DNA of 53,562 nt, filler included, from Stramenopiles sp. TOSAG23-6 (GCA_900128565.1; 3 parts of 3 records of this genome joined end to end with filler, not necessarily neighbours in it), one strand, 5' to 3'. Shown: positions 6,412 through 29,483, counted from the whole stretch's first letter. Numbers and translations: made by a program. The notes: generated by a model from the letters alone, not told the origin.

Positions 6412-9400
6412 CTACATTTTGAGCTCAATATGTGCTCCACGCTGAATCAATTTCATTGCGGCACTGTAACTAATAGCAACAGGCACACCACTGAGTTTCA
6501 TAGCATTGTATAAATCCGGTGCATCCTCTATTTTCGCATGCATAGCCATATTTATCAAGCAGTCATACGTTGCAGTATTGGGACTTAAATCGTCATTGAC
6601 AAGAGCTTTGAAAACTGACATTGCCCTTTTCCATTGTGATGCGCGACTGCATGCGTCGAGTACAGAGTTATAAGTAGTTAGTTTAGGCTGAATTTGAAAC
6701 CTCTTCATCTCCCACAATATTCCGACAGCTGCATCAGCCGCGGGAGGTTTTGCATATTTACAAGTAGAAATTATCGCAGTAAATGTGGAGAGATCTGGTC
6801 GAATATCCCTTTGAACCATAACATTGAAAACGTACATAGACTCCCGCCATTTACCCGTTTTACATAAGTCGCGTAGTATTCTCAAATATAGGCTTCTAGC
6901 TTTCACCATGTCACTAATGGTTACATGTGCAGTAGGAGTTATTTTTCTAACTACTTCAAGATTTGCAATAAAATCTGGAGCTATCGTGTATCTTTCTGTT
7001 TCTTCCTTTTCTATATTAGTAACTCTACGATTTTGCAATACTCCATTAGATTTCTTTCGTTTCGATGCTAATTGTATAGCATCATCAATATCCCCTCGTT
7101 CATCCACAAATTTGGCACGTAATTCAGCAAGTTGAGAATTTTTAAGTTTCTCTAAACTTGCCAAGTCATTTTTTAAACGAGTTACTCGAGAATGTTGAGC
7201 CCGGAAAGCTGGATTTCTTTTAGTTTCATATACGATGCATCGTTTCCTTAATTCTTGTAGCTCGGTGTGNATTTCTTTTCCAGATGCAAATGGTAGTTGT
7301 AAGCCTAATGCACGCATAGCAAATGCTATATGAGAAGCATTGCTCTTATCTTGAAGTAACTCCCCAACATGTTCAACGCATTTAGTTACCCGTTGTCTCC
7401 AACCAGAGCTTTCAGCTAGGGAAAGATGTTCTGTAATACTCAGAGCTTGATTGATGAACCGTAAATATTCAGCCTCTAGCTCGACCAACTTTTCCTTTGC
7501 CTGGCATAGCTGTACACGTCTCTGTGATACAATCATATTACTGTTGGTCTTTATACGATCATAATTGAGTTGTGTGCTCTCAGTTATTTGATGGCGCTTA
7601 ATAGATAAATCTGCTAATTCCGTTTTTGCCTCAGATGCTGCAATAACTTTTGCAATTCTTTCTTCCATTATCTTTTCGCGTTCTTGTATTACACGAGATG
7701 TTTCAGTTTCTGCCTGGCGAATTTGGTTTTTCACTGCTACGAGGAGCTCATGCGAAGAATGCTTACCATCACGCATCCATCTCTGTTTACATTTCATGGC
7801 TGCGTGACGTAGTTTCATTGAGCGCTGTTTTGGACTAAGATTAGTATGTTTTTTTGGAACATCTATATTTATGTCCTCGACATCTTCAATATTTTCTATT
7901 TTCTTTTGAGAGCCATGTTTCTTCTGTGTATCAGAAAATAATCTTCCAAACATCATGGCATATATTCGTAAGATTCCATCTGCCCTCGCCCCAAATCCAG
8001 GTGATGGCTTGCAAAGACCTTTTCGAATATTCATGTGTTGAAGTTTAACCCATTTAGCCATTTGTGCAACATATTCCCTTGGAAGAACATACGGCTCATC
8101 GTGTCCAGGTGGTGAAGCATCGAGACTAGCACCACGTAAAAGAAGGAGCTCTGTTGCATCAGCACATCCCCACTTAATACACTTGAGAAGTAATCTACTT
8201 CCATCAACAATTGTATCTGGGTCTAAACCCCGAGAAAGTAACGTGGCAACAAATGCAGCGACAGGGAATTGCCATGCTCGACGAAATAATCGATCCAACC
8301 AACACACACTACCCATCGCTGCCATCACAGGAGCAGAAAACAAATACTCAGGCCGAGGTGCATGGTGTGTCATTTTTATTATTTTTCGTACTAAAGCTGG
8401 TTTCCAAAGGTTCCAACTAGCTTTTGTTCCACCAATGGTAGTGTTTGCTGCAGCGCGTCGAAGTGCGTGTTGCTTTGGATCTAACTGAGACCATGNTTTG
8501 TTCTTTTGAGCAAATCCATCCGTTGAGCAAAGTAGGCGACGAATTATCATCACAGAGGAATAGCAATTCTTCCAATTGTCCGTGATATTAGGTGCAAGGA
8601 ACGCTGGGTCTGTACCAGTGGACATAGCAAGTCTACAAAACCATGGCCTCCATTGACTTTTTTGCACCTCGCTAGACATAATTTTAGCACGCCATACTTT
8701 ACATACAAGTTCTGCCCGACAAAGCTCTCGGGGGTTCAACACAAGACCTCGGCTTAATGCGCATTGCAAGGCCACCACTGCACCTTGCATACTCTGAAAA
8801 CGTTGTCTTGCTTTATAGTAATGCCAAGCTGCTTGGGCTTTTCGTACCGAACGAAGATATCTTGCTCGCCGACGGTGTATAAACCCTCTCACAAAACGTT
8901 GTAAATTACGCATCGGGCGCATAGTTCCTTTTACCTTTTTAACTAAATCCCAATGGAATAAAACCATCGATGTACATCGTCGTGCCACTTGTTTTCTTTC
9001 TCTTAATATTTGCATTCTATCGGCCCTTATAAGCGCTTCAATTCTATCAGACTTTAATGCTTTATGTCTCTGACGTTCCATAGTTTCCCACCTCTGTCGC
9101 ATGAACATTCTTTTATCTGCATCAAGATCTTTCATTTGGCGCATTGTGCGTTTAATAGTTTCCAGGCGTGTTACGGATATACCATGCGTCACACCCGCTT
9201 CAGAATCAGAATCTGAAGCATCTGATAGAGGATCGCCATCGACAACACTATTTACACGCATTATTTGGGTTGATTCGATTCTGTCTTTATCCCCGTGATA
9301 TGTTGAACAATGAACAAAAAGTTTCTCTGATTCGACGAGACCTCTCATAATTTTTAATTCTTTACTTGGTTTATTTTCTTCTCTGAGCTTTCTCTTTTTT

Positions 9401-12400
9401 ATTCTCCTTTTCATTTTTGCCTTTCTTTGTTTTTTATTCAACCTCCGTACATTATTCGATGCAACGGCCGATAAATTTTCGTCGGTGTTACTATTTTCAC
9501 TCTCTGATGAACTATTACTGCTCTCTTCTTCTTCACTTTTTGACTCATTTTGAACTAAACCCTCTTCTTCGGAACTAGATTCATCATTATTATTATCTGT
9601 GTCAGTCGCTTCGCTAAAATCTTCATTTTCCAAATTTCCATTTTGGTCCTTCTGCTTAGCTTTGAGGAATTTTCGCAATTGTTTACGGCGTATTTTATAA
9701 GGAATAGCATTGCCGCTTTTGTCTCGAACCCACGGTTTGCCTCTACCTTCTGTTTCCCATAACATTGTTCCATGATTTGCAGGCGCAATACCTGTGGGAA
9801 ATAATCTATTGCTTCGTTTTATCACCACGGAAATTTCAGTATTACATGGAATAAATAAACCCCTTTTAGCTACCAATATCAATGTGTGTGTGTTTCTATA
9901 CCATGCTGAACTAAAATCTTTGCCATGAGACCCGGATATTGAACATGGTATAATATCATATGCAGATGAAAGACATGGAAGCGTGAATACAATTCGATTA
10001 GAAGATTGAATGGAAATATTTGATTTCCACTGTATCGTAACTTCTGAAATTTGTTTCGCAAAGTTAGGCTTGAAAAAAACGCTTGAGTCATAAAAAATAG
10101 CTTTTGAAGATTCAACCATCTTATGTTCGAAAGCAGAAGTTGCCAGTGCAAGAAGCATTTTGTGTCGCTCCAATGATGTCTTTGCTGTTTCAATTACATA
10201 TGACTCAATTAATAGTTCGTTTTGTAGCGCTTCTTCCCGAGCAATATTTGTTGCAATTACCCTCTCCGCAGCTTCCTTTTCTTCACGGAGCAATTGTTCT
10301 TGCATACTCTCTCGTTTGTAACCTTCAGTATTCTCTGAGCCAATTTCCCGAATACCTTTAGCTACATTTTTCAAGTACCAGTCGGTAAATTCCTCAAATG
10401 TAACACTTCCATCACCACTTGAATCCATCTCAGAAAACGCATCATTCAGTTTTTTATTTGATAGAAAACCCGTTAGTTTCTCGCCAAGCGCTTCCGCAAG
10501 TTTACGCACTTCGTTTTTGTCTAATTCGCCAGATTTGTCTTCATCAAGTTGGTCAAATAGTTTACGAATCTTGCCCATCATCAGTTTTTTTCTTTCAATC
10601 GCACTGTAAGCTTGCCCATTTTCATTGAAGAAGCCTATTCCGAGAGGATCAAGTCTCTTCTCCTTTTCCCTTATGTTTTTTTGTTCATTCAAAATTCGTT
10701 TCTTTTCCTTCTTTTCAGCTTGGATTGCCTTTTGCGATTTACGTTTTTCATCGCGTGCGCGTTCTTTAAGAGTCTTTTTCAATTCTTTTTCTGTGAGTGT
10801 CTTATCATTTTCATCGCGTTTGCGAAGTTCTTCTTTTTTCAGTTCTTCACACCGAATTGTATCAGCTTCAGAAAAAGCAATTTCTTTCATTACCGTTCGC
10901 TGACGATTCTCTTCCCTTTCCATCGAAACTCTTTCTCGTTTCATATTTAAACATTCCTTGTGTTGTTTTTCTTTTTCGCATAAATCTATTCTCATCAAAG
11001 CTACCCAATGACGCTCTTCTTCATCAGAGTCACTAGAAAGACTAGGATCATCCTCTGATGAAGCTAGAGCCTCTTCCCATATTGGAAGTGGACCTCGGTT
11101 TCTTCTCCGAATAGCACGACGTCGTCTTCGAACTATTTGAGCAACGCGCTTACGCTCTTTCTCAACAAGCGCTATAGCATCATCATCTTTGCTCTGGATT
11201 TCTGCCTCACGGCGTAGCTTGAAAAAATATTTCTTGTATTTTTCTTGGGCATCAATAAAAGCAGGTACGAGACATTCAAGCTCACTATGACGCGCACACA
11301 ACTCACTTTCTATTTTTGCTTGTTCGATTGGTGTGATGTCACCACTTCGCATTGGACCAAACGGACGAAGGGCAGCAATACGCGCATCTAAGTAATTTTG
11401 AAGAGTACATTTATCCTTATTGCAAGCTTCCATAGCAGCTTTTGATTTATCCATATTTTCCCGGAGTCTCTTAATCTGAGCATTGTTCCATATATTATCG
11501 AAACTTCTTAGTTTATCTATTAGGTGCTCTGAATTTGAAACATTTTTCTCGCAAAGCTCCTTTTGCTTTTTCAGAGTATCTAAATCTTCTTTCCATTTCT
11601 CTTCCTGTAGAACTTTGAGGTCAGTACGTATATCATCCATGTCATCAAAACAGTCTTCCATTTTTCGTGTTGCATCAGTCAAATCATTATATAATGATAC
11701 CAAAACTTCAGAAACATCCGTGCGTTCTTCTACAACAAATTCATCATAATCTGGTAATGGTTTGAACTCACCTGATGCGTCAGCTTCTTCTTTCCATTGG
11801 GATTGAAATAATTTATCTGCCTTATCTCTTTTTATTTGTGAATTTTTGTGCTTCAGCATAGCATCTTTAAGCATTGAGTTTAGACTACGTATATCTTCAT
11901 CACGCAATGCTGAAATTTTCTTTTTATATTCAACTTCTGCTAGAACTCCTTCGAATCGTCTCTTTGTGGCAAGCCTTGATGCTTTAATGAGTAGTACTCC
12001 TTCAGAATCCGAGCTTGGGTTGGATTCAGATGGTATTGAAATTGGTTGGTCGTATTCTATAACATCCTTTGTTTCTATAAATGGATTAAAATTATACACT
12101 CTCCAATAATCTGTTTCTGCTGATGGACTCGATGCGGTCAAAGCCAAAGCAGCAGCTCGCTTCATTGTATCTTCTTTTGTCCATTTTTTTCCAACCAATG
12201 CAGAAATTATACCGCGTGAATCCTTTTCTTTGTTTCTTTGTTCCAGAATGATTTCTTTATGAAAATTTTCTGCCCATTCGACACTAGAAGTTGTAACCTG
12301 TTTTTTACGATTGACTCGCGCAATAGATGCTGCTTCCAGCTTTTGATTCAAATTAAGTCGCTCTATTTCCAATGGTTTTATAAGGACATCAATGCCGAGA

Positions 12401-15400
12401 ACTTCTTTTTCAGCGACTTTAAGTGCATTTATTGCATTTTTCATTATTCTTTCTTTATCAAGATCTTCTTCGTCAACCATATTAGCTTTTTCCATTTTCT
12501 TTTGAGCTTTACTTAATAATATATCCACATTATTTTTACTTTCATTGAATGGGATGAGCTCTACATTAATTTGCTTGATTCTATCCTCATATAGTGAACA
12601 TTGTAAATAATCTGACTTTTGCATCAAAATTTCTATTACTCGCTTTCGTCTCTCCAATTCAGCACTTGCAGCATATACGCAGAGACTCATGGCGCGTAGA
12701 GCACAAGGAACGACACGTTTCTCATTAAGGTTTGTTTCTTTTGCGAAAAATCTCGACTTCAGTATTTCTATATTATCTGATACATTGTTTTCAAAGGCAG
12801 TAGCTAAATTTGGTGCATCCCCAGGAAGCATCCATTCCTTAACATTCCCTTCGGGGATATTATTTAGCAATGTTTTGTACATTTCTTTGTCTTCTTGTTC
12901 AGCTCGCCTTGCAATATTTGTTAAATCCTTTAAAACTTTAAATGCCTCTTCCGCATTTTTCTTTAATGTCTCAATTCCTTTACGTTCTTTTTTCAGCATA
13001 CTTGCTCGGATCCGTTTGGATTTTGCGAACTTGGTTAAACGTCGAATTATAATATGAGATGATTGATCTTTTTCTGTCTTATCTTTCTTACTTTCGTGGA
13101 AGGCTTGATTCACTTTCTTGGTAGCTTCTACAGCTGCAATTTTCCCACNCTTTTCCATCTCTAAGGCCACAGACGCTTTGGATTCCAGCTGTAAATATGT
13201 CTCACGCGCATCTCGCAAATTTTGTTTTGACAAAATCATGTGTTTGTAAGATTTTTTCCATTTATCATGCGATTTTAATAGAATATCCCATTTTGTTTTA
13301 TGGTTTTTGTGTAACAAGAATCGTTTTCTTTTAGCCTCGATATCGAGTTTGTCATTTTGTACTGAGGCTTCTACATCACTACGAGCGTACATTTCTGATA
13401 TGTACCTCATTGCAAGCATAAAACCCGGTGATTGAGTTAATCCACTTCCTGTAAACTCGCTCAATGAAATTAACTGTACACTCCTAATTTCTTTATTGAA
13501 CGTATCGGTTTTTCCCACACCGTTTTCTTCGAGATCATTTGTTATATGGTTTAAATGCATCGCCGGTTCCACATTATATTGAGAAAGCTCTACTAAACAT
13601 TTAGAACTCTCGCGTACCACATGGTCAAATTGTTTCTGTAACTCTATTTTTTCCTCCATTGTAATTTTCGCCTTTGCTTTAGATTTTCCAAGTGAGCGAC
13701 GCGCAATCATCTTTTTATGTTTTGCAATTTTTGCTTCGCTTTCTGCTTTCCCCAATTCGATTATATGCGCANCCTTCAATGCTTTAGTAGGAATGTAGTC
13801 GATTGCTACTAACGCTGCAAATATTTTATCCTTTTCACTACTTAGACGCGATACTTTCTTTAGGTCTAATTCTTGATTTTCAATCAATATTTGTAATTCT
13901 GAGAGTAATCCTTTAGCTGTCTCTGCTCGTTGTTCTGCTTCAAATCCCAATCTTGCGACGTTTTGAGCATCTTGAAAATGTAATAATCTTTGTTCTGCTT
14001 CTGATTTTGATTTTTCCATTCTTGAAATTTCGTTGTTCGTAAGTTTTAGTAATTCAGTATAATTCTCTAATTTCTTTAATCGTTTTTGTTCCGTCTCTTC
14101 AGAAATAAGTTCGTTTAAGATAAGACGTTTTTTCACCAATTTGTCTCTAATTTGTCTCATATTATTTTGTGAATGAATTAATTGTTCTGTTGCCTCTTTA
14201 TTTGCCGCCTCAGCTTTGGCCAGTGCTTTTCTGTGAGTACTTAAGAGAGACATCTTTATATTAACCCTTTTGAATACTTTAGAAAAACGTTGGAAATTCA
14301 ATTTTGATTTGGACCTTTCTCTATTTCCACTTTTTACTGGAGTTTTAGCTTCATCTGTGACAATTTCAGATGTGTCTATTTGANCAACCGAGTTTTCGTT
14401 TTCGAGTTCTTCTTCATCGGCGTCTACATTTTTCTCTTTCGCAACATCAACATTTGCAGCTGCATCCATTACATTATTCGATGTCTCTAAAACCTTTTCT
14501 TTGGCAAACTTATATACAATTTCTGCATCTTCAAAAGCTCGCTGCAATTTTTTTACAATTGGGCGAAGTTTCGACAACCTCAAAGTTCGTTTTGAAATAT
14601 CAAAAGGCAAGAAGTCATCCTTAATACGGTTGTAAGCCGTAACTAGCTTTTCATATAATTGTGTTTTTTTCAAGTTTCCAAGATTATCATCATTGTTTCC
14701 ATTGACTTCAATTGTTTTGTTATTCCTTTCTACATCATTGTCACTGTTATCCGAATCAGAACTTGAATCATCCTCAGAGCCATCAGCAGCACTGTTAATC
14801 GCACCCATTGTACCATGTATATCATTGTATGCTTTTTCGGCCGCAGACTTTGCAACTTCAACTTTTGATTTGAGTATATCTAAATCATAATCAATTTGTT
14901 GAAGATTGCGAAGTTCTTTTAATTTTAGCTTGACATCGTTTTGATCTTGAAGTAATTTAATTACATCTAGCTTATGATTCCGAATCTCTAGTTCACGAGA
15001 TGCAATTTCCGCAGNCGTGAGCATTTCTTTAGAAATTTGGTCCACAAGGTGTCCTTCTTTCATTTGAGTNGTTTCTTCAATATCTTCTTGTTCAAACTGT
15101 AAATCATCTAACTTTTTTTCCAATGCATTAATTTTTTCTGATTCCAAGATTCTTATACGTCGCCGAGGAATATTGTAAAACTCGCGATCGTTGTTGAGCC
15201 GCACTGTAAATTTAGTTTGGACAATATTTGGGTTTAATGAATCAACGCCTACGATAAATCCANGACGCCAATCGCGGCGATATATTTCATTGTCGCTCTC
15301 TGGACGTTTATATGTTTCGGCATAAGGATCATCNTCAGTGATTACTAATGTTTTAGACAATAATTTCAGTTCTGCAATACTACTACCATCTTTTGTTTTT

Positions 15401-17805
15401 TTGATTTTACTTTTTTTTTTCTTATCATGATCAGATGTAACTCCATCAATGTTAGTATCCACAGGTACTTCCTTTAACTTTTTTTTACGGGCTTTTATCT
15501 TTGTCAAGGAGATTTCACCAAAGTCCTCGTCAGAAGAAGTTGCCATATCTTCTGCTTTTTTGATTTCTGCTTCTAATGCAGCAACCTTTGCTCTTTCTTC
15601 TTCCTTCTTCTTCAAATAAATGTTCCTTGCCTCCTCNGTGGGCATATTATCTAAAAGCATTTTCTCATTATTCTTTTTATTATCTGCTAGGCTCTTTGTC
15701 TTTTTCTCCGCCCTTTTCATTTTCTCAGCTTCTCTAGCCTCACGGAGTCTCTTCTTATCAAAGAAACGCATCCTAGCAGACTCCTCGAGCTTTAAAAGCA
15801 TATCAACTTCTGATGCACGTTTCCGCAGCAGGCGGCGCTTTTGACGGGCAGCGCGTCGCTGAATTTTACCTTCTCTAAGAATTTGTAGATAGGTAGTAAC
15901 AGCATTATTGTCATCTCCTTCTCTCAACTCTTGGAGCTTCTTTAGTTCGTCTTCCTTGCGCCTCTTACGAAAAGCAGATCGGCAAGCAATCCGAAATTTC
16001 TTATTCCTCGCCAATTTTCTAGCATTGTATCCTGCTCTTTCATTTTCTTCCATCCTTGCAATTCTATCTGACTCAAGCTGTTTCTCTTTAGCCTGTCGCA
16101 CAGAGCGTTTATTTAACTTTCGAGTATTGTCAACAACTCGGTCAGGTTTTACAATATCTTCGTCAGATTCGACATTTGAATCAGTATCAGAATCTTTATG
16201 TTCTTTTTCACTATTGGCTTCAACAAAAGAGTTTCCATTGACAATCTTTTCATCATGTTTTTTAGCTAGCTTCTTTTGTTTGTCTGATTCTTTCTTTAAT
16301 TTACTTTTATTAGTCCCGATATATTGTCCATCTTCATCTGGATCTTCATCAGAATCACCAAAACTTACTTCTACAAATGTTGCATCGTATGTAGCTCCTC
16401 GCCGTGGAAAAAGCATTCGTATATTTTTACCCATTCGCTCTCGGCGACGTTCATCGCGGAACCATTGTAATTCCTTTTCTCTATCGGTTTTATGCAAGGC
16501 TTTCAAATCAGCCCTTTTAGCCTTTGTTGCCGCATCTACCATTGCTTTGCGTTCAGCTTTGGATTTTTCCATTTCTCTAATACGATCAATGTTACGGACA
16601 TCTAATGACAATTGATCAGCTTCTATCATGAGCATTCGTCTTTCACTTAATGCAATGCGCATTTCCCGCGTTTCATATGATGCAGCAGTAAATCGGGCAT
16701 TACTTAATGTTCTTCGTGCTAAAGTTACGATTTCGAGTTCGGGTGATTCTCCTTCGACATTATCACTATTATTTATATTCAAATCTTTATCATTCACCTG
16801 ACTTAATACAAAGGCAAGTTGTTTCTCAGCCTTTTCTACAGCAACTCTAAGCGCATTCAGTTCAGCTACTTCTTTTTCAGACTCCATATCTACTTTTTCT
16901 CGTGCACGTGAGTGGGAAAATTCCACAGACATTAATATTTGTTCATACTGTCGCATCACCGCCTCTACAGCTCTATTGGAGGCACGATGGGCAATTGATA
17001 CAGACGACTTTGTTTCACGAATAATCTCTTTAATTCTTTGCTTCAGAGCTTTTGCATCTTCAGCTTCTTTGGCTTCCGCCTCAGCTACTCGACGAGCTTT
17101 TTCATCCGCTTCTTGTTTCTCCCGAGACTTCTTTTCTGCGATTTCGCGCGCATACTTATCTTTACTTTCCCATTCTTCAAGTTCTCTTTTTGCACTTTCC
17201 AAAAGCTTTTCAGCTTCAGCTTTATCGGGACCCTCTTTTGCCAGATTGAAGGCCTCTTTGGCTAATTTTACTCGTTTACGAGCCTGTCTCAAAGCTCTAG
17301 ATGCCAGTTTTGCATCAGTCTTGGCCATCTTTTCTTCCTCTTGTCTATGCAACGCCGCTTCAGCTATTTCACGTTGCATTTGCCGCTTTTTCATGCGTAG
17401 TTTTGCCGCATGTGCTCTCGCTAAAGTCTCTGCTTTTTTTTGGGCTTTCTTCTTTTTACGTTCTATTTCAGCCTGTTTTTCAGCAACCATTCGAAGCTTT
17501 TCCTCTTCTTCTCGTTCTTTTGCATCTATTTCATCTTGAATCCTTTTTTCTTCCCTTTGTTTTTCTCTCTCAGACTCTTGTATGCTAAGCAAGTTTTCTA
17601 ATTTTTGTAATTCCTTTGCAATCAATATCCGACGTCGGCGTTTTTTACTTCCTCCACCCATAGCTCCATCAAGTTTTCGACGTAATTCGAGTAGCTTTGC
17701 AGATAACTCAATAGGGGTCCAAGTTTTGTGCTTAATAATATTGTGTACACCAAGGTTTTTAATATTTTTTGTAGTTGAAATCCGGGATTTACTAATTGGT
17801 AACAC
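6412..17805 (-). CDS. Giant intronless coiled-coil protein with an EF-hand pair, IQ motif, ankyrin-like repeat and C-terminal PPR repeats (5' end truncated by gap)
   Basis: 11.4-kb ORF containing FDQLDEDKSGELDKNE and MDSSGDGSVTFEEF (EF-hands), LQRFVRGFIHRRR (IQ), ATELLLLRGASLD (ankyrin-like) and PKLTTYNSVLDACSRASQWKRAMSVF (PPR). Confidence 0.85.
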   Translation of the reverse strand: MLPISKSRISTTKNIKNLGVHNIIKHKTWTPIELSAKLLELRRKLDGAMGGGSKKRRRRILIAKELQKLENLLSIQESEREKQREEKRIQDEIDAKEREEEEKLRMVAEKQAEIERKKKKAQKKAETLARAHAAKLRMKKRQMQREIAEAALHRQEEEKMAKTDAKLASRALRQARKRVKLAKEAFNLAKEGPDKAEAEKLLESAKRELEEWESKDKYAREIAEKKSREKQEADEKARRVAEAEAKEAEDAKALKQRIKEIIRETKSSVSIAHRASNRAVEAVMRQYEQILMSVEFSHSRAREKVDMESEKEVAELNALRVAVEKAEKQLAFVLSQVNDKDLNINNSDNVEGESPELEIVTLARRTLSNARFTAASYETREMRIALSERRMLMIEADQLSLDVRNIDRIREMEKSKAERKAMVDAATKAKRADLKALHKTDREKELQWFRDERRRERMGKNIRMLFPRRGATYDATFVEVSFGDSDEDPDEDGQYIGTNKSKLKKESDKQKKLAKKHDEKIVNGNSFVEANSEKEHKDSDTDSNVESDEDIVKPDRVVDNTRKLNKRSVRQAKEKQLESDRIARMEENERAGYNARKLARNKKFRIACRSAFRKRRKEDELKKLQELREGDDNNAVTTYLQILREGKIQRRAARQKRRLLRKRASEVDMLLKLEESARMRFFDKKRLREAREAEKMKRAEKKTKSLADNKKNNEKMLLDNMPXEEARNIYLKKKEEERAKVAALEAEIKKAEDMATSSDEDFGEISLTKIKARKKKLKEVPVDTNIDGVTSDHDKKKKSKIKKTKDGSSIAELKLLSKTLVITXDDPYAETYKRPESDNEIYRRDWRXGFIVGVDSLNPNIVQTKFTVRLNNDREFYNIPRRRIRILESEKINALEKKLDDLQFEQEDIEEXTQMKEGHLVDQISKEMLTXAEIASRELEIRNHKLDVIKLLQDQNDVKLKLKELRNLQQIDYDLDILKSKVEVAKSAAEKAYNDIHGTMGAINSAADGSEDDSSSDSDNSDNDVERNNKTIEVNGNNDDNLGNLKKTQLYEKLVTAYNRIKDDFLPFDISKRTLRLSKLRPIVKKLQRAFEDAEIVYKFAKEKVLETSNNVMDAAANVDVAKEKNVDADEEELENENSVXQIDTSEIVTDEAKTPVKSGNRERSKSKLNFQRFSKVFKRVNIKMSLLSTHRKALAKAEAANKEATEQLIHSQNNMRQIRDKLVKKRLILNELISEETEQKRLKKLENYTELLKLTNNEISRMEKSKSEAEQRLLHFQDAQNVARLGFEAEQRAETAKGLLSELQILIENQELDLKKVSRLSSEKDKIFAALVAIDYIPTKALKXAHIIELGKAESEAKIAKHKKMIARRSLGKSKAKAKITMEEKIELQKQFDHVVRESSKCLVELSQYNVEPAMHLNHITNDLEENGVGKTDTFNKEIRSVQLISLSEFTGSGLTQSPGFMLAMRYISEMYARSDVEASVQNDKLDIEAKRKRFLLHKNHKTKWDILLKSHDKWKKSYKHMILSKQNLRDARETYLQLESKASVALEMEKXGKIAAVEATKKVNQAFHESKKDKTEKDQSSHIIIRRLTKFAKSKRIRASMLKKERKGIETLKKNAEEAFKVLKDLTNIARRAEQEDKEMYKTLLNNIPEGNVKEWMLPGDAPNLATAFENNVSDNIEILKSRFFAKETNLNEKRVVPCALRAMSLCVYAASAELERRKRVIEILMQKSDYLQCSLYEDRIKQINVELIPFNESKNNVDILLSKAQKKMEKANMVDEEDLDKERIMKNAINALKVAEKEVLGIDVLIKPLEIERLNLNQKLEAASIARVNRKKQVTTSSVEWAENFHKEIILEQRNKEKDSRGIISALVGKKWTKEDTMKRAAALALTASSPSAETDYWRVYNFNPFIETKDVIEYDQPISIPSESNPSSDSEGVLLIKASRLATKRRFEGVLAEVEYKKKISALRDEDIRSLNSMLKDAMLKHKNSQIKRDKADKLFQSQWKEEADASGEFKPLPDYDEFVVEERTDVSEVLVSLYNDLTDATRKMEDCFDDMDDIRTDLKVLQEEKWKEDLDTLKKQKELCEKNVSNSEHLIDKLRSFDNIWNNAQIKRLRENMDKSKAAMEACNKDKCTLQNYLDARIAALRPFGPMRSGDITPIEQAKIESELCARHSELECLVPAFIDAQEKYKKYFFKLRREAEIQSKDDDAIALVEKERKRVAQIVRRRRRAIRRRNRGPLPIWEEALASSEDDPSLSSDSDEEERHWVALMRIDLCEKEKQHKECLNMKRERVSMEREENRQRTVMKEIAFSEADTIRCEELKKEELRKRDENDKTLTEKELKKTLKERARDEKRKSQKAIQAEKKEKKRILNEQKNIREKEKRLDPLGIGFFNENGQAYSAIERKKLMMGKIRKLFDQLDEDKSGELDKNEVRKLAEALGEKLTGFLSNKKLNDAFSEMDSSGDGSVTFEEFTDWYLKNVAKGIREIGSENTEGYKRESMQEQLLREEKEAAERVIATNIAREEALQNELLIESYVIETAKTSLERHKMLLALATSAFEHKMVESSKAIFYDSSVFFKPNFAKQISEVTIQWKSNISIQSSNRIVFTLPCLSSAYDIIPCSISGSHGKDFSSAWYRNTHTLILVAKRGLFIPCNTEISVVIKRSNRLFPTGIAPANHGTMLWETEGRGKPWVRDKSGNAIPYKIRRKQLRKFLKAKQKDQNGNLENEDFSEATDTDNNNDESSSEEEGLVQNESKSEEEESSNSSSESENSNTDENLSAVASNNVRRLNKKQRKAKMKRRIKKRKLREENKPSKELKIMRGLVESEKLFVHCSTYHGDKDRIESTQIMRVNSVVDGDPLSDASDSDSEAGVTHGISVTRLETIKRTMRQMKDLDADKRMFMRQRWETMERQRHKALKSDRIEALIRADRMQILRERKQVARRCTSMVLFHWDLVKKVKGTMRPMRNLQRFVRGFIHRRRARYLRSVRKAQAAWHYYKARQRFQSMQGAVVALQCALSRGLVLNPRELCRAELVCKVWRAKIMSSEVQKSQWRPWFCRLAMSTGTDPAFLAPNITDNWKNCYSSVMIIRRLLCSTDGFAQKNKXWSQLDPKQHALRRAAANTTIGGTKASWNLWKPALVRKIIKMTHHAPRPEYLFSAPVMAAMGSVCWLDRLFRRAWQFPVAAFVATLLSRGLDPDTIVDGSRLLLKCIKWGCADATELLLLRGASLDASPPGHDEPYVLPREYVAQMAKWVKLQHMNIRKGLCKPSPGFGARADGILRIYAMMFGRLFSDTQKKHGSQKKIENIEDVEDINIDVPKKHTNLSPKQRSMKLRHAAMKCKQRWMRDGKHSSHELLVAVKNQIRQAETETSRVIQEREKIMEERIAKVIAASEAKTELADLSIKRHQITESTQLNYDRIKTNSNMIVSQRRVQLCQAKEKLVELEAEYLRFINQALSITEHLSLAESSGWRQRVTKCVEHVGELLQDKSNASHIAFAMRALGLQLPFASGKEXHTELQELRKRCIVYETKRNPAFRAQHSRVTRLKNDLASLEKLKNSQLAELRAKFVDERGDIDDAIQLASKRKKSNGVLQNRRVTNIEKEETERYTIAPDFIANLEVVRKITPTAHVTISDMVKARSLYLRILRDLCKTGKWRESMYVFNVMVQRDIRPDLSTFTAIISTCKYAKPPAADAAVGILWEMKRFQIQPKLTTYNSVLDACSRASQWKRAMSVFKALVNDDLSPNTATYDCLINMAMHAKIEDAPDLYNAMKLSGVPVAISYSAAMKLIQRGAHIELKM

Positions 17806-17830
17806 TTCAACCTTTTGGACAGATTCATTT

Positions 17831-17930
17831 NNNNNNNNNNNNNNNNNNNNNNNNNNNNNNNNNNNNNNNNNNNNTTAATTAATTAANNNNNNNNNNNNNN
17901 NNNNNNNNNNNNNNNNNNNNNNNNNNNNNN
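17831..17930. other. Assembly gap with TTAATTAATTAA linker (17875-17886)
   Basis: N-run interrupted by a 12-mer that has stops in all six frames, a typical contig-joining spacer. Confidence 0.9.
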
Positions 17931-19983: not shown

Positions 19984-20122
19984 TCGAATAACAAATATGT
20001 AATTTCCACTTCAATGTTACTTGTAAAGATATGAAAAACGCGAAGGATCGACAAAAAAAAACCCATAAAATAACGGATAATTTTGGATTTTTCGGTACCA
20101 GGTCACCCAGACCCAGGAAAAT

Positions 20123-23100
20123 ATGAGCACAACTCGTTGTCGTATTGGTTTTGAATGTTTTTCAATAGAAGCACTAAAGCGTACGTTTTCATCTAATTTA
20201 TTTTTTTACTAAGAAAATTTTGTACCTAACGATTTCTTTTACTAAAAAGAAGTATTTTTCACAATACATATTTACGCAAAGATAAAGAATTCTTTTTTCT
20301 TACACCTGCAGCACAAAAAAAAGTCGTTTTGGAAGAATGGAATAAACTCAGTGAGATCGATAGGGACATGATCTGTTCAAAAGCCGAAATTTCTCAAACA
20401 AAAGAATCAAATATTGTCACAGATGACAATGAGTCAACGAAACAGTCACTTAAAAAATTGTCTATGAAGGGAAAGAAAATTAAATGTAAAAATACTTTAT
20501 CTAAAGGCAAAACAACCACAAACACAAAAAGTAAATATAAGAAAAGAAAAGGTAGCAGTAATAAAAAAGTGGTGAAAACTGCAAATACCTCTTTAGTGGA
20601 TCCTCAAATTATTCAAGAAGAAACAAAAGATAAAAACAAACAAAGTAATGTTTGTAAAATTACACATGATTCATCTAAATCTATAAATTCTTCAGTCAAT
20701 GTTATTGATTTAATTGATGTTGACGAAGATTGTATAATGATTGATGAAAGTAAAGGAAAAGTGGATATAGTTGTTATCGATGTCAAAACACCAAAAACAT
20801 TAAAAAAATCAAATAATGTTGCAAATAATATTACAAATAATATTACAAATAGAGAAAATAGTGGAAATGGTTCAATTTCTATCGACAAAAATATCTCTCA
20901 AAATGATAAAGATTTGATTGAAGAAAACAAAATTAAATCTATTCCTATGATGTTTCGTACCAAATCACAAAAAAATCAACTTAATATACTACAAAGTCGT
21001 CGTTTAGAGCGGGAAAAATATGAAAAATTAAGAAAATTTGATCAAGCACTGAATCAAAATAAAACTTTAAATCCGTTTTTTGATAGAGAAAAGCGACGTT
21101 TAGCAGCAAAAAAATGTCAGAGATCAAATTCTTTTGGCAGTGAAAAATGTACGTTTTTATCATGGATTTAAATTTTTTTTTTTTTTGGTAGAAAATTCTG
21201 TACCTAATGAATTGTTTTTGTGACATATTTTTCCACAATAAATATATCCCTCCTCAATTTATTCACAAACATTGGAATTTAGTTGAATTTCCGTCCCAAA
21301 TGTTGGGATTAAAAAATCATGTGTATGGTGATAATAAAACTATCTGTGATAAGGATGATGAAACTGTCGTGATTTTCCCCATCAATTATATATGTTTTCA
21401 TGATGAATTTCAAATTTATCTTTTTTCATACGAAATTTTGTACCTAACAAAAAACAATTTGAAATATTTTTTCACAATACATTCTTCTGTCGCGAAGAGT
21501 ATGTGTGATTGGATTGATAAGAAACCAGAGAAGAATAATATAGATGAAGTAATTGATATAAACACTCAAGAAAATCTGGATAGCAGTAGTGGCATTTTTT
21601 TTTCAACTGCTCTTTTGAATGGGGAAACAAAAAAATATTTAGGAAAAAAAGTAAATGTTGTAGATATAACTCTTGATGAAAATAATTGTGAAAATAGTAA
21701 AGTTTTACATGATAATTGTCACACCGTAATGTCTCGAGCATTACCTGCTGCCGTTTCGACATTTATTAAATCGAATAAAGTTCAGAATGCAATCCTTGAT
21801 ATTACTAGAGGTAGAGAATTTAATTCAAAATGTAGTACTAATAAAGAGGATAAAGAACAAGATGATGATGATGATGATGATGATATGAAGGAACTGGATG
21901 CAGAATATGCAACAACGTTGTCAATGTTTACAATGGCTGCAATGCGACGTTTTTCAATGGGTGACGCAAATGTGTGGCATTCAGATTGGAGTCATAAATA
22001 TCGTCCTAGGTGTACGTTTTCATCATGAATGTTTTTACCTAAATTGTTTTTTACTAGAAAATTTCATACCTAACGATTTTTTTGTATGGAAAAAAATGTA
22101 TATATTTTTTTATAATACATGTACGTTTCATATGAATTTCTAATTTAATTTTTTTTCGTACGAAATTTCGTACCTAACGATTTTTTTTTAAATATTTTTT
22201 TATAATACATGTGTCGGAGACATTATAGGAAAACATAATCGAAATGAGGCTGAATCTTTACTTACATGGTTGTACGTTTTCATCATTTCAATTTCGAATG
22301 TATTTGTTTTGTACCAAATTTTGTACCTAACATTTGTTGTACACCAAAAACCAAATATATCTTTTTACACTAATTGAGGGAATGGAAACAACTTCATTTG
22401 GGTCAACGTGGTAGACAAAATGTATCAAATAAAAGTAGTTATGGCTCTTATGGTATAAATTTATGGTACGGATTTGATGATGGTGATAGTAGTGACGAAT
22501 CAGAATTAAGTAATGGTTGTTTACTCACTGGTCCTACTGGTTGTGGCAAGACTTCATTAGTATATGCATGTGCAGAGATGCTTGGAATTAGAGTTATTGA
22601 AGTTCATGCTGGTTGTAAAAGATCTCGCGCGGATATATGTATGTTTTCCAGTATGAATTTCAAATTTATTTTTGTGTAGTAAAAAATTCTGTACCAAACT
22701 TTTTTTTTACTCAAAAAAAAAAAAAAAAAAATTCACAATATAGTAAGACTCTTTGGCGAAGCAACGCAATCGCAACGTTTGACTTTAGATTCAAAAAATA
22801 AGAATAAAAAAAGTAAACAAAAAACTACATGGCATGTACGTTTTTAAAATTGAATTTTGTCTAATTTTGTTTCATGCGAAATTTTGTACCTAACAAAAAG
22901 AATTGTATAATTTTGTTTTCCACAATACATGTTGCTCGAGATGACGATACACCGAAAAAGATTGCAAAAAGATTGGACGTAAGTGTCAAAGACATTCTAC
23001 TACTAAATAATGGGAAGTCTGGAACAGAAAAATTGTACATGTCTGCTCGTTTATACAAGGGAACGAATGTAAAAGTTCCTGTTGAAAAGCAAAAAAAGAA

Positions 23101-24834
23101 AAAGAAGAAATCAAAAGCTTCAAAAGCGAGAGAAAAAGCTCTACAAAGTACGGAAACATCGACTGAAGCAAATTTTAGTATTATTTTATTTGATGAAGTT
23201 GATCTCGATTTTGAAGAAGATTTGGGTTTTATCGCTGCTCTTCGAAATCTTCTTCGATCTGCAAAGTGTCCAGTTGTTATGACTGCAATTACTAGACCGA
23301 ACTCTTTGACTGAAAATTCTACTATTGATTTACGAACTTTACATTTAATACGACCTGATAAATTGGTACAACTTCGCTGGCTTCGTGTAATTTGCCTTGC
23401 TGAGGGATTAAATGTAAAAAGTTCAATGTTACAAAAACTTCTTGAAAATTCAAGTTTTGATGTGAGACGTTGTTTAAATGAATTACAAATTTGGTTTAAT
23501 AAATTGCCACCGGTACAAGAAAGTCGTTCCTCAAGGCATTGTAAAGATGATACTTTATCGATACAATTAAAGATCCCACTTCTTGAGATTTCGTATGGTC
23601 AATCTGGATTAGATGATATTCCATCGTATAGTGGTAGAAGTGCTGTTGAGGGAATGGGGGATTTACGATCTCTATGGTGTTCCGTGTTACCACAATTATG
23701 TACTCATTGTAGAATTGCATCTACTGTGGTGAATATAGAGGGTGGTTTTTATGATACACAAAATTATACATCTACTGATATGAAGTGTTCATTGATGAAT
23801 CTTAAAAGTAAAAAGAATAGTAATAAGAAGAAAAAAATTGCCTCGAATGGACGTCGTAGACTTCGAAAAGCATGTGTGTCAAGTTCTGATGATGATTTTG
23901 AAGATCCACCAATAGCACAAGATGATAATGAAGAAAAGATTAAACATTCTGATGATGATTTTGAAGATCCACCAATAGCACAAGATGAGACTATAAATGT
24001 CATTAAAAGTGAAAAAGATAAAATAAGACCACTTCGTCGTACAACACCTCTGACTGATACGGAACACTTATCTAATGTAGAATTTTCTATTATTTCAAGT
24101 GTATCATCATTGACGTCAGATGTCGATGCAATAGTATCCTTAAATTCTCTGCAACGTCGGGGGTGGAGCAGTTGTTCTTTAGCAGATTCGCGAGACAGTG
24201 AGAGTAGTGAAGATCTGGAAATGTGGCATCATTCAAATCTTGCATCAGAAATTTCCGCAGAACTTTTTGCATTGCAAGGTAAAGTGTACAATAATAAAAT
24301 TTCTAATATTGTAAGCAAAGTCCCAAATGAAGTAAAAACTTCAGAACCAATTTGCCCTACAGCTGCTCAGAATTATTGCGAATATGCTATACAAGTAGAA
24401 AACACTCGAGATAAATTTCGTATACAATGGGAGGTTATATTAGACCTATCATTCAGAAATGATTATGAAAGATGTTTTGTAGAATCTTTGTCTAAGCGTA
24501 CGTTTTTATCATGAATTTCAAATTTAGTTTTTTTTTCGTACGCAATTTTGTACCTAACATTTTTTTTTGATATTTTTTTTACAATACATGTTCTGTAGGT
24601 AATAATAATATGTCAGGCGCCGGAGTACTACGACTATCACATAAAGGTATCGATGAACTTTCTGGTCTACGGTCAATTTGTGAGTCCTGGCAGTTGAATA
24701 GTAAATACATGGCATCTCGTCGTCGAAGTAAAAGAGCACGTCTTCACTATTTAGTTGATGGTGCCCGAACTTTTCTTACGGATGAAGACGTTGCGACAAT
24801 TACAAGATCTGGAATATCTAGTGATGCACGGTAG
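20123..24834 (+). CDS. ATAD5: ATAD5/Elg1-like (RFC1 family) AAA+ clamp loader/unloader large subunit with LysM-like insert (exons 20123-20180, 20270-21148, 21244-21389, 21483-22011, 22211-22271, 22376-22638, 22744-22835, 22931-24497, 24590-24834)
   Basis: WSHKYRP, LLTWLREWK, Walker A GPTGCGKTSLVYACA, RS..DIL..FGEATQSQR, Walker B ILFDEVD, AKCPVVMT and DVRRCLNELQIW. The start codon is uncertain. Confidence 0.82.
22012..22210 (+). other. Two back-to-back family introns (22012-22120, 22121-22210) with a zero-length exon
   Basis: ...TATAATACAT|GTACGTTTC..., each unit with its own branch motif. Removing both gives KYRPRCVGDIIG. Confidence 0.85.
22272..22375 (+). other. Non-canonical GT-TT intron
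   Basis: tgg tt|GTACGT...ACTAATT|g agg restores WLREWK. Confidence 0.72.
22639..22743 (+). other. Canonical GT-AG member of the intron family
   Basis: ata t|GTATGT...CACAATATAG|ta gives DILRLFGEATQS. The AG falls in the same register as the AT of other members. Confidence 0.85.
23885..23988 (+). repeat. In-frame 41-bp direct repeat, 63-bp spacing (SDDDFEDPPIAQD x2)
   Basis: tctgatgatgattttgaagatccaccaatagcacaagatga occurs twice. Confidence 0.85.
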
Positions 24835-25048
24835 TAAAATTAAGGTGAATTAATTGGTCACTTGAGTGTTTGTTATCATGATATATCAAAGATAATAAAT
24901 GGGTATTCATATGATGTATATACATTTGAAAAGTTGTTTTTTATTACTAGAAACTGCATATGAAAAAAGTGGATACTAGAGAGAGAGAGAGATAAAATGT
25001 TTTTTTTTTTATTTTCTTACAAAAAGGGGTTCAAAAACATCTCAAATG

Positions 25049-27666
25049 TTATTTTCTTCCATCGCTAATAGGCCATATACTAGAGTTCCTTTTACGATAA
25101 AATAATTGGTATGCTCTTGGAGATATAATATCACTTACATCACGAACTTTTGTGCATGAAGAGTCATTAAAATTATACCATTGGTTATTTTTAAAGTTCT
25201 TAGCATATGCTGTGTAGTGTCCCCCTCCAAGACCACCTGAATGATTAGATACTGCAAATAAATCATATATATAATCATCATCATTCGTTGCTGACATTAC
25301 AAATGGAGAAAGATCAAGACCTTCCAAGGGGAAATCGACCATTGATGATATTTTATCACGAGTAACACTATGTTTTCTCCATCCTTGACTATAGTGAAAA
25401 CGTTTTAAACCTACAATGAAAATCTCAGGTACAGACCATAAACCTAATTGTTTATATGCGCGAACGTGTTTTTTACACTTATTACAATACCATTCATTCT
25501 GTTCATCAAGCTGTTCTTCTGCAGCAAAAGCTGAGAAGCACGATGCTATATTGAGTGCGCTTGATTTATTACAGCCACGTCGAGGCATAGATGAATGCAT
25601 AACAACATGTGAAAATGTACTGTAAAAAAATATTTAAAATTTTGTTTTGTTAGGTACAAAATGTTGTACGATTTGTTTTCTACAATTCATGATGAAAACG
25701 TACATGCTGCTTGATCAAAAGAGTTATCAAAGCCTTCGACGGTCCATTGCACCACAATCATTTTGTCTTTGAAAGATGTGGTAACGACATCATCATTTTC
25801 AAAAACTTCTTTCAATTTTGAATTTCGAGAGGAATATGATGAGTATCCTTTTTGTTTAGATGAACCTATAGCAAGTTTAAATGGAAGCCTTTGGGAATTA
25901 TAACCGGATCCAACTTTTACGTATTGTTGCATATATTTCCACACTAGAGTATGCATTTCCCTTCCAGTACAAGTATTGTGAAAAAATATTTCAAAAAAAA
26001 ATCGTTAGGTACGAATTTTCGTATGAAAAAAACAATTAAATTAGAAATTCATATAAAACGTACAACGCCTGGGGAAAACAAGGACAAGAGTATGCCCAAA
26101 TGATTCTCCACGAGAACCAGGTGATCCTAGACTAAATATCTTTTTATCTTTTGGAGCTTTCGGTTTTTGTTGATGAACTTCTATTGCAACTCTACCGATA
26201 CCAAGGGCAGTTTTATGTGAACCTAATTCAACCATACCAATTTTTTTACTCTCATTTACCCACTCATCTGCAGTCAATCGGCCAGGTTCAACATTCGAGT
26301 TAAAGTCACCATCTGCAAATTGAACCTCAAAAGTTCCATCATCATTGACACTATCAATCCAGCCATTAAATTCATTACCTGTCATACATATATTGTGAAA
26401 ATATATTTCTTTTGTATAATTTGTTAGGTACGAAATTTTTATAAAAAAAAATAAATAAATTCGAAATTGAAAAAATATAAAACATACTATTCCATCGACA
26501 TCTAACTTTTAAACCTTTCACGAAATTACCATTGGCTCTAGCTTTGGCTTCATCACTGGATCCTCCTTCATACGGATCAGGCTGATTCATTTCGAGTTCA
26601 TATATAAATGTTGTAGCTCTAGGACGAATTCGTTTACATTTTTCTGAATTATTTCGTGTTGTATTAATCCTCACAACTCCAAGATTATCTGTCATATCAG
26701 CACAAACAAGAGAATCAACACCACCGGAAATACCACTCATCACAACTACAGCATGTTTCAAATCAATTATAGTACTATTTTTAATTTCTACACGAGGTTG
26801 GCATCTAAGTGGAGGTCTAGCTGGATCTTTAAAAACTACAGTCACTTCAATGGGTCTTGTAGTAGGCAATGGTAACGGTAGAGATACTGTCATATATGGA
26901 TCAAAAGTAATGCTTTCACGACTACATTTGTTACACTTAATGTGACTTCGAAGTTGTCCAAAAAATGTATCTGTGATAAATGATTTATTACGTCGAAGGT
27001 GCCCATCCCATGCTAATTTCGCAATAACTTCATCTGGTCGTCCATCTGATTCAATGACTGGCTCGTATGGTTTTTTCTTAATTAAATTACAATCTTCATG
27101 TAAGCCATCCAACAAAAACGTCATTAATTCTTGAGCATCTTGTTGATTGTATCCCGCAAAACTTGAATTATATTCACCAATTCGTTTTTTAAATTCTGCA
27201 GGCACACAAACTGAATAATCACCTGACCAAACGGCATTAATAAGATTTGCGTACGTTTCAGTCATCCGACCACCATAACCAATTTTATTATCTTTATTTA
27301 TTGAGTCTTCATATTTTCCAGATAAAAAAAATGTGGATAGAGGCTCACAATTTGAAAGACATTGAAGAATAGAGTTCATAAAACAAGTATTACCTAAATT
27401 CCTTAAACCAACAGCTCCTTCAATTGCTGGAGATCCAATTGTATGAGCTCGAACATTACGTGTATTTCTACTATTATAACGACGACCAAATTGTGATTGT
27501 TGCTTTACGTGTGTTCCATATCTTTGTAATTCATCACTGTCAAATGTAAACCAAGTATCAGTACTTTCATCACTTTTATCCCAATGTAGTTTTACACGTT
27601 TTCCTCCATGTATTGAGAAAAAATATGTTTTATATTCTATACATATTTGTTAGATTTAGAATTTTC

Positions 27667-27697
<31 letters not shown>

Positions 27698-29157
27698 ACA
27701 TGAAAACGAAAACATACATTGGTCGAAGGATCTCTGTCCACTTCGACAACACGAGCGTTCATCCAGTTCGAAGATGTTCCAGAAGAATTAAGCTTTTTCC
27801 CCTCTACGCGATCATTTACACGAAAGTTTCTCCAATTTCCAACTTTTGAATATTTTGGTTGTAATCGACTGCGTTCGGTTTTCCAATTAATCCACTCATC
27901 CCATCTCGATGCCCAACCTCTATAATGAACTTTAACACGAAATTCTCGATGATTTGTTTCAATAATATCAGCTTCCCACCATTTATTCTGAGAATCTATA
28001 CCATCACAGCGACCCCATGCATTGTGAAAAAAAAAATCAAATGTTTTTTGTTAGGTACAAAATTTCGTATGAAAAAAAAAATTCGAAATTGAAAACGTAC
28101 CGACAGCAAGTTGTGAACGCCAGTTATCAGATAATTCTTCGACATCACGAGGCCATTTACCATTGGCGTTTAATTCTTCCACTAAAATCTCACACGAGTC
28201 TTCAACTCCAGCAAGATCCTGAAGATTACCATCAATACCAACAAGCTGCCATGGATTATGAAAAATATTTCAAAAATTAAAATTGTTAGGTACAAAATTT
28301 CGTATGAAAAAAAAAATTGAAATTGAAATGAAAACGTACATGCTTCTACTTCATTACCTCTGGAGGTTGGTCTCGACCAAAGTCGAATTCGTGACTTGGC
28401 TACTTTATATTGATTGGCGACGATTTCTAGAAGTTTGGTTAAGGTTTGATTTCGTGAAAGCAAAACTCGTTGATACATGTATTGTGAAAAAATATACATA
28501 TTTTTTTTTCTGTACAAAAAAATGATTAGGTCCAAAATTTCGTATAAAAAAATAAATTTGAAATTGGTAAAACATTGAAATGAAAACGTACATGCCAGAG
28601 TGAATATTTTCACGATCTGTTGCAGACACTATTTCTGCTTTACCAGCTAAATCAGCTTTAATTAAGTCAAAAACTAAAGGGTGAACTTCAACAGATAATT
28701 TCTTTTCAGTACCACGCACAATGACTTCACGACGTAAAACTATTGAGCAACCATATAATTTAACGAGTACAATCCAAGCTTTTTCAGGAACAGCAGTGTA
28801 ATCTTGATCATAAAAACAATCTTTACGAACCTCTTGACCAGATCCTGTTACAATAGTACTGTTATCAATTGGACCAGGTCGTTCACCACCTATGGACAAC
28901 TCCTTTCTCAAACTCAATTTCTCCTCAAAAACACGCTGAAGGTCAGTTTTGTTTTCAGACATTGGACTTCCAGGTGTCAGCTCCATTGATTCATTTGCAA
29001 GCGACTCGCAAGGTACAGATGCTTGGTAATCGTTCCATGCTTGGAACCACTTAACCGGTAGGATATACCAAATAGAACCAAGTGTCAACTTTGAATTTTT
29101 GATTACTTTTGCAACTTCCGACTCTGTAAGAAATGAATCATCCATATTTGGAGGCAT
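25049..29157 (-). CDS. Ubiquitin-specific protease, USP4/11/15-like, with DUSP, UBL and Tudor/Agenet-like inserts (exons 29157-28592, 28476-28340, 28250-28101, 28016-27718, 27607-26488, 26387-26064, 25970-25704, 25614-25049)
   Basis: DUSP (WY...KWF..W, PGPIDN), Cys box GLRNLGNTCFMNSILQC, QQDAQE..FLLDGLHED and His box NHSGGLGGGHYTAY. Confidence 0.9.
25971..26063 (-). other. Non-canonical GT-TT intron
   Basis: cgt t|GTACGT...CACAATACTT|gt act. The exon also ends in TT. Confidence 0.78.
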
Positions 29158-29483
29158 TTTCAGAACGTATTATTGACAATAGACTCTCACTAAATGACAC
29201 AAAATTTTACTTTGGATTAAATAAAGAAACTTCTGAGAGAGAAATCAATGTTAATCGTGAATAAGATCTAGATCTCTAATTATTTTTCCCTTTTAGTTCA
29301 ATCTAATCAAAATGGTGCGTCGGATGATGATGAAATGATTTGTAACTTCTACGTGAATAACACGAAATCAAAGAAATCGGCGAGGGTCTGAGAAAAAAAA
29401 CGGAAAAAATGAGAAGCTTCCATTTATACTAATAACGGTTAATTGTTCAAGACTTGAAGAGAAGTTGAATCTATCTGAAAGCA

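Follow-up and report, generated by a model that had tools for sequence, protein, structure and literature searches.

Does a palindrome that recurs beside a candidate branch-point motif in the genome of Stramenopiles sp. TOSAG23-6 serve splicing as an RNA structure, or is it a trace of something else? The question arises from a stretch of 53,562 nucleotides (hereafter the window; three parts of three records of the genome GCA_900128565.1, joined end to end with filler), in which GTACGAAATTTCGTAC forms a perfect 16-bp palindrome and CTAAC adjoins it at 22174-22178. A preliminary description of this DNA had pointed out both elements, which are read directly in the window, and had proposed an RNA stem-loop presenting the branch A, an extended snRNA pairing site or a transposase binding site. 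When up to three mismatches are allowed, 91 strand-matches to the 16-mer are found in the window, whereas 2.06 would be expected. Across the 21.1-Mb assembly, exact matches to the 21-mer that includes CTAAC, with either C or T allowed at position 12, number 3,014, which exceeds the count of true loci because some assembly contigs are duplicated; the reversed control has none. Among metagenome records the motif was found in one (L121:2463-2566, minus strand), which contains a single complete family intron whose palindrome is perfect, and viral contigs gave no matches. One protein of the window has a best homolog that is 96% identical and carries a MAST-3-style label in EukProt, the next homolog being 70% identical, and the organism is therefore called a MAST-3-like stramenopile here.

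The analysed sample, 848,440 bases in all, was made up of the window together with 80 stretches of the genome, about half of which were picked on contigs known to hold exact matches, so that the sample favours intact copies. Introns were called by donor and tail matrices. A branch anchor with at most two mismatches in positions 13-21 was present in 270 of them, of which 243 were gap-free and were used for pair counts, and 27 were dropped. When the anchor was restricted to positions 17-20, 286 introns were obtained against 19 calls in the reversed control, and the 192 high-scoring ones were used for the decay and arm-asymmetry counts. The automatic calls include errors: the donor of the intron directly upstream of the copy studied was put at 22027, the true one being at 22012. 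Training of the donor matrix used only sequence and preceded the comparison with U1, yet the matrix favours consensus-like donors.

The motif is the branch-site box of a family of GT..AT introns of about 95 nt, which are copies of a small, apparently mobile intron present in thousands of genes of this marine protist. The element spans roughly 80-120 nt and has three boxes, namely the donor GTAYGTTTT, the central box, and the tail AAATATTTTTTCACAATAC followed by two bases, mostly AT. In the high-scoring set, 186 of 196 introns start with GT, as expected of U2-type donors complementary to U1, although the calling model favours such donors, and six start with AT. The intron end is AT in 168/196 and AG in only 6/196, that is, an AG acceptor is not the rule. 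U12-type words (donor RTATCCTT and branch site TCCTTAAC) are at background, and a search run without a positive control returned no U12 snRNA match in the genome. Many similar introns occupy unrelated sites, as in introner families, with a median nearest-neighbour score of 0.84. Canonical donor and acceptor words occur at 0.73-1.24 fold in the sample and thus near background, and the donor words of the family are enriched about 4-fold; the family therefore appears to be the main intron type.

The splice register was fixed with reading frames (Table 1). In the USP4/15-like gene, a frame of 1142 aa results when seven elements are removed at GT..AT or GT..TT, and all 28 shifts of an intron end by 1 or 2 nt truncate this frame. 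Six of the seven junctions align gap-free to a 70%-identical homolog; the seventh shows a 2-residue gap, and shifts of -3 and -6 score slightly higher there. An AG between the branch box and the intron end is skipped in four of the seven introns. The public model P0001 for the region 24900-29300 (minus strand) has 942 aa, 200 aa below the GT..AT frame, and appears to be mis-spliced. At 27608-27717 (minus strand) an intron of the same gene is needed for the frame although its palindrome is nearly gone and CTAAC is left. A polyA contig that spans the exon 26060-26385 with 72 and 15 unaligned end letters fits splicing, displays no junction and carries no weight as evidence here. Mapping of reads from three metatranscriptome runs of two studies, together with one DNA run, was swamped by jumps between repeat copies.

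The copy studied lies in a gene for a clamp-loader-like AAA+ protein with a Walker A motif GPTGCGKT and a LysM-like insert, presumably ATAD5/Elg1-like. Removal of nine elements yields 1282 aa, retention of the motif-bearing intron shortens the product to 737 aa, shifts of its end by 1-2 nt give 731-772 aa, and retention of the intron directly upstream gives 808 aa. No exon base separates the two introns, and the CAT that ends the first forms positions -3 to -1 of the next donor, much as in a recursive splice site. A second abutting pair was seen at L037:7483-7678, so that 2 of 172 neighbouring pairs in the sample abut. Another element of the same gene, at 21390-21482 (93 nt), starts with AT instead of GT and may be either retained or spliced; the frame offers no proof of its removal because the intron is in frame and free of stops. 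Elsewhere in the window, an intron-free frame of about 3,800 codons (6412-17874, minus strand) with EF-hand-, IQ- and PPR-like stretches by eye contains zero family introns over 11 kb.

Table 1. Positions of the features discussed; coordinates are those of the window unless a genome stretch is named.
Feature	Position	Strand	Remark
Clamp-loader-like AAA+ gene region	20000..24800	+	nine family introns; limits are translation limits
Upstream family intron, 109 nt, GT..AT	22012..22120	+	reading frame
Near-palindrome TTCATCATGAA in the upstream intron	22019..22029	+	subfamily feature, 13/212 introns
Donor, -3 to +8	22118..22128	+	11/11 complementary to U1 nt 1-11; duplex -14.2 kcal/mol
Family intron holding the motif, 90 nt, GT..AT	22121..22210	+	second of two abutting; reading frame
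16-bp palindrome, motif positions 1-16	22158..22173	+	3' arm, GTAC at 22170-22173, also forms the upstream half of the branch box
Branch box GTACCTAAC, conserved	22170..22178	+	putative branch A at 22177
Tail box: AAATATTT, T-run, conserved ATAC, then AT	22190..22210	+	AT, a 2-nt target-duplication-like end, is the acceptor
USP4/15-like gene	25052..29157	-	seven family introns; fixes the splice register
U5 snRNA	9-126 of L033 (contig C1146)	same strand	
U2 snRNA	129-325 of L033 (contig C1146)	same strand	
U1 snRNA	349-508 of L033 (contig C1146)	same strand	
U4 snRNA	514-645 of L033 (contig C1146)	same strand	

The palindrome had been singled out as the best-conserved block, which is true of one part of the motif. 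In the copy set anchored on positions 13-21, these positions show 91-100% consensus, whereas positions 1, 4 and 5 of the 5' arm reach 60-72%; the contrast was seen again when copies were anchored on positions 17-20 together with the donor and tail boxes, positions 13-21 serving only as tie-breakers. The T variant is indeed common, being found in 68/243 gap-free copies against 16/243 for the perfect palindrome. As for the two further motifs reported earlier, AAATATTT recurs ahead of the 3' end in 150 of 212 introns (22190-22197 in the copy studied). Recurrence of TTCAT(C/G)ATGAA is real, with five occurrences in the window against 0.19 expected, but minor (13/212 introns), and the copy near the 5' end sits in the neighbouring upstream intron, the copy studied having TTCATATGAA in its place. 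The central box itself is repeated in some copies, with a third 12-nt unit at 51658-51685 (minus strand) and a tandem second box at 47766-47849 (plus strand) of the window.

As read from its gene, the U1 RNA of this organism is changed at three normally fixed letters and matches the starts of the family introns exactly. Within nucleotides 1-11 (L033:349-359), the departures from the Rfam consensus are at nt 2, 5 and 9, which face donor position +7 (T in 100%), donor position +4 (C in 45% and T in 53%, both of which pair with G) and exon position -1 (T in 90%), respectively. Over 196 donors, the mean pairing is 10.2/11 with the U1 of this genome and 7.3/11 with the consensus U1. The match to the U1 family (Rfam RF00003) is full-length, covering model positions 1-166 with four stem-loops and the Sm site (E 7.5e-12), and its score of 54.1 bits is below the Rfam gathering score of 69.5 bits. 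No second, canonical U1 emerged from the assembly, which may be incomplete: the canonical 10-mer occurs 24 times against 21 for the control, and the family search returned changed copies only.

The gene belongs to a cluster in the order U5-U2-U1-U4 with gaps of 2, 23 and 5 nt. These are too short for separate promoters, and the cluster may therefore be transcribed as one polycistronic precursor. A second copy on contig C6122 is identical to the first over the first 664 nt, and since one cluster contig carries a complete family intron, the cluster belongs to this organism. The U5-U2 adjacency pattern was found in none of the metagenome records searched, and the U6 gene lies outside the cluster (L034). 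Loop 1 of U5 and the ACAGAGA box of U6 have canonical sequences. In Prp8, 798 residues align to the human protein, with near-identity around residues 1475-1600, a stretch that we take to include the 3' splice-site pocket. Of 16 zf-CCCH matches, five loci were read, and none of these five is U2AF1-like. The window also encodes, at 38616-39854 (plus strand), a U2A' homolog whose long basic extension ends in a SAP domain.

The U2 snRNA likewise gives a full-length match, and its branch-recognition region equals the Rfam consensus. CTAAC, which lies 32-47 nt from the intron end, would pair with this canonical U2 in the manner of U2-type branch sites; at the level of sequence the earlier reading of CTAAC as the branch point thus stands, with the second A as the probable branch nucleotide. 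In the branch-helix register described in the accessible text of PMC13167188, C21, A19, T18 and C17 would pair with G33-G36 around a bulged A20, G13 would stand opposite C40, and the helix extends 5'-ward through a channel formed by protein. For that reason, positions 13-16 would lie inside the U2 branch helix and could not be part of a hairpin at that step. A one-base bulge would let GTA pair with U37-U39; the energy estimate did not favour this bulge over a short helix, and the extended and short helices were not separated by it.

The flanks of the introns bear on how the family spreads. When exon positions -1 and -2 were compared with the last two intron bases, exon -1 equalled the last intron base in 176/196 introns against 167.3 ± 1.3 after shuffling, and exon -2 agreed with its counterpart in 151/196 against 133.7 ± 2.7. 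No such signal was seen at exon positions -3 to -6 of the 196 introns. Excess agreement confined to -1 and -2 points to a 2-nt target duplication around GTAY...ATAC. The duplication, a property of introners, is stronger in less diverged copies, and the candidate terminal inverted repeats, seen on inspection of the consensus, comprise only 4 bp (GTAY...ATAC).

Copies were ranked by the similarity of their spacers to those of the nearest relative, and the close and diverged thirds (64 copies each) were compared. Between the close and the diverged third, the share of copies with an intact 16-mer, in either its C or its T form, drops from 33/64 to 6/64 and that with the 2-nt duplication from 55/64 to 36/64, while TACCTAA goes from 62/64 to 48/64 and the AT end from 55/64 to 53/64. 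In the diverged third, the G/C positions 0, 1, 4 and 5 are down to 36-53%, whereas G13, C16, C17 and C21 are still at 81-92%; the A/T positions of the 5' arm and loop are 83-92% intact, which allows for weak selection there. The arms differ accordingly when mirror positions are compared, position 1 being changed in 85/192 introns against 13/192 for position 16 (p 5e-18) and position 4 in 60/192 against 18/192 for position 13 (p 1e-7). A 5' arm that decays after insertion while the 3' arm persists is the pattern of an inherited, eroding feature. A copy counts as old if the 4% sample contains no close relative, and these copies are enriched for a different subfamily (donor +4 is C in 48/64 of the diverged and 12/64 of the least diverged copies); some of the decay may therefore reflect differences among the source elements. 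The youngest group is mostly T12 (84%), an imperfect DNA dyad; hence the source was no perfect dyad, which argues against a strictly symmetric protein site. A role of the palindrome in transposition would fit the decay pattern, and it is from this pattern that we infer it. Several common variants lie at CpGs. Deamination of CpG as their sole cause was considered and rejected, as the observed/expected ratio of CpG in the sample is 0.89 and the youngest copies do not have C12 more often (16% against 30%). The genome does contain three loci for cytosine-5 DNA methylases (L116, L117 and L118).

Could the palindrome nevertheless be conserved as an RNA stem-loop, pairing 1:16 to 6:11, that presents the branch A? 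Taken alone, the 16-mer has a folding energy of -5.4 kcal/mol in its C form and -3.3 kcal/mol in its T form, positions 17-18 are predicted to be unpaired, the common T12 variant retains a G-U pair, and in silico folding gives the hairpin a mean pairing probability of 0.44, with 158/243 16-mers at -1 kcal/mol or better. Yet the substitutions are random with respect to pairing. Pair counting on these six pairs showed no covariation, compensatory changes not exceeding the shuffled and slid controls: 150 of the 243 copies, 116 of them distinct, were aligned and contain no two-sided changes in 696 cells, 78.4% of the pairs are formed against 78.8% after shuffling, and the covariation score is 0.095 against 0.102. 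All six pairs are possible in only 106/243 copies. Pair 1:16 is A-C in 80/243 and pair 4:13 is G-G in 45/243; pair 5:12 is A-C in 15 copies and shows no avoidance (paired in 201 against 205.6 shuffled, n = 243), and pairs 3:14 and 4:13 are formed slightly more often than in shuffled copies (p 0.004 and 0.034), with one compensatory change each. The 3' arm lies, moreover, within the footprint of the U2 branch helix in the register given above (accessible text of PMC13167188), and in yeast reporters stems on the branch site or just upstream of it reduce splicing, according to the available part of PMC12637734. The intron 22121-22210 folds no better than its shuffles (z -1.39), its centroid is nearly unpaired and its best fold uses other partners; the mean z of 60 sampled introns is -0.75. 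We therefore regard a maintained stem-loop, the first proposal of the preliminary description, as very unlikely. An alternative hairpin TTTC-GTAC-GAAA, with the stem centred on positions 1-4, was tried and discarded (pairing probability 0.02, no covariation). The minimum-energy fold of the intron instead pairs the 3' arm with the donor, and such pairing of YGTAC (12-16) with GTAYG, which would bring the 5' splice site beside the branch point, is kept by all the common variants (C or T at +4, C or T at position 12). Its probability is lower still: compensation is lacking, in that all six A+1 donors with a pairable partner column keep C16 and one more has A16, A13 occurs with +4 C in seven copies and with +4 T in three, and the donor must stay free for U1 and U6. 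A yeast stem over both sites also lowers splicing, as stated in the accessible part of PMC12637734.

The remaining alternatives concern what might read the upstream half. Long stereotyped boxes are characteristic of U12-type introns, and the length and uniformity of the box could suggest that the whole 21-mer is read by extended pairing with U2 or a novel small RNA. Such pairing, also envisaged in the earlier note, is highly improbable: with U2 canonical in its branch-recognition region there is no support for extended U2 pairing, and the longest perfect complement to the 21-mer in U1, U2, U4, U5 or U6 is 5-6 nt. Less remote, though still unlikely, is that the upstream half (T-run and RTASRAAATTT) is a single-stranded RNA site for a protein that helps to load U2 in place of the missing AG/U2AF1 contact, the palindromy being incidental. 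The constant register relative to the branch A (no gap in 243 of 270 copies), the persistence of the A/T positions in diverged copies and a genome with no SF1-HH match, in a search run without a positive control, would suit such a site. The loss at the G/C positions 0, 1, 4 and 5 would not, slow decay of A/T positions is expected anyway in an AT-rich genome, and at least one frame-required USP intron (donor 27717) lacks the upstream half.

We favour, with a probability of about 0.6, the reading in which a non-autonomous mobile element, about 95 nt long and carrying the motif as its central box, is now the dominant intron type and is removed as GT..AT by the major spliceosome. The palindrome, itself real, is neither a maintained RNA hairpin nor an extended snRNA site; its 3' half belongs to the branch box, and its 5' half is most likely a relic of mobility. 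The element would consist of GTAY...ATAC and a duplicated 2-nt target, usually AT. For its removal, the changed U1, whose complementarity to the donor is direct, would pair with positions -3 to +8, after which the ordinary U2 would presumably pair with CTAAC and bulge the A at 22177. Positions 13-16 (GTAC) would occupy -7 to -4 of the branch helix and hence be single-stranded, and selection for splicing would keep them conserved as observed. The tail box 32-47 nt downstream would then set the 3' cut independently of an AG, in the register given by the reading frames. The 5' arm would have no maintained role in the pre-mRNA and would go back to the source elements, in which the symmetry was probably used for mobility, as a protein site on DNA or as a single-strand hairpin; after insertion it would erode together with the target duplication, in line with the decay observed.

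Several known systems share parts of this arrangement. The extended branch box of yeast-type U2-type introns is UACUAAC. It resembles the box described here in its CTAAC core, conserved bases just upstream and a canonical U2, but GTACCTAAC has U2 mismatches at -4 and -5 in the register of PMC13167188, or needs a one-base bulge, and is preceded by the palindromic relic. The introners of Micromonas pusilla and other algae are likewise many similar short introns at unrelated sites (available portions of PMC11282704 and PMC12130899), and in the Micromonas type the donor comes with the element and the 3' end from duplication of the target site (PMC11282704, same portion). In our family, the duplication is of 2 nt and mostly AT, so the intron ends with AT rather than AG, the candidate terminal inverted repeats are only 4 bp, and an internal branch box with a palindrome is present. 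U1 is changed here, whereas Micromonas keeps the standard one, as the consulted part of 10.1101/2022.06.08.495308 reports. The same part of that source describes Entamoeba and Mastigamoeba balamuthi U1 with a 5' end fully complementary to an atypical, near-uniform donor, the changes pairing with intronic donor positions. It counts only these cases and a mixed one in Physarum as changed, and lists yeasts, Giardia, Thecamonas and Mamiellales as having standard U1 despite atypical donors. Here, by contrast, there are three differences from the Rfam consensus, one of them opposite exonic position -1, and the host is a stramenopile whose donors come from a family of mobile elements with non-AG ends. 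The transposon-derived introns of Fritillaria borealis also have non-AG ends, although their donors are mostly AG and have no strong U1 complementarity, whereas ours are GT and matched by U1 (accessible text of PMC13326754); the adaptation there is described as U2AF paralogs and m6A (PMC13326754 and PMC11282704, in the parts available).

What is new here is the U1 change at nt 2, 5 and 9, including the base opposite exon -1. The literature covered, mostly freely accessible main texts, held nothing on MAST-3 introns, the changed U1 or an abutting four-snRNA cluster, and PMC6461891 and PMC5778133, in the text accessible, had no bearing on the question; introner species tables in the supplements of PMC9860276 and PMC12130899, which lie outside this negative result, could include the genome.

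The proposed hairpin is no new splicing structure, and it is the surrounding system that matters. Few cases are known in which the 5' end of U1 has changed in a compensatory way (Entamoeba, Mastigamoeba and mixed Physarum in the accessible part of 10.1101/2022.06.08.495308). Here such a change coincides with a mobile intron family lacking AG ends, while U2, U5 loop 1, the U6 ACAGAGA box and central Prp8 are ordinary. Tentatively, at a little short of even odds, we suggest that a transposon took over the introns of this genome and the spliceosome adapted to it, U1 changing three conserved bases of its 5' end and the tail box replacing AG recognition, with the palindrome as a cis-signal for mobility. 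If so, the changed U1 bases may match the element end and the preferred target base, the palindrome possibly acted as a single-strand hairpin (the youngest copies keep a G-T mismatch), and copies landing on the AT end of an existing intron can create zero-length exons that need recursive splicing. For annotators, the family supplies donor, branch and acceptor models for the MAST-3-like lineage. It also poses a testable question, namely whether mass intron gain from a transposon reshapes the spliceosome or a changed spliceosome selects the transposon; genomes of sister MAST-3 lineages would give the order of the U1 change and the intron gain.
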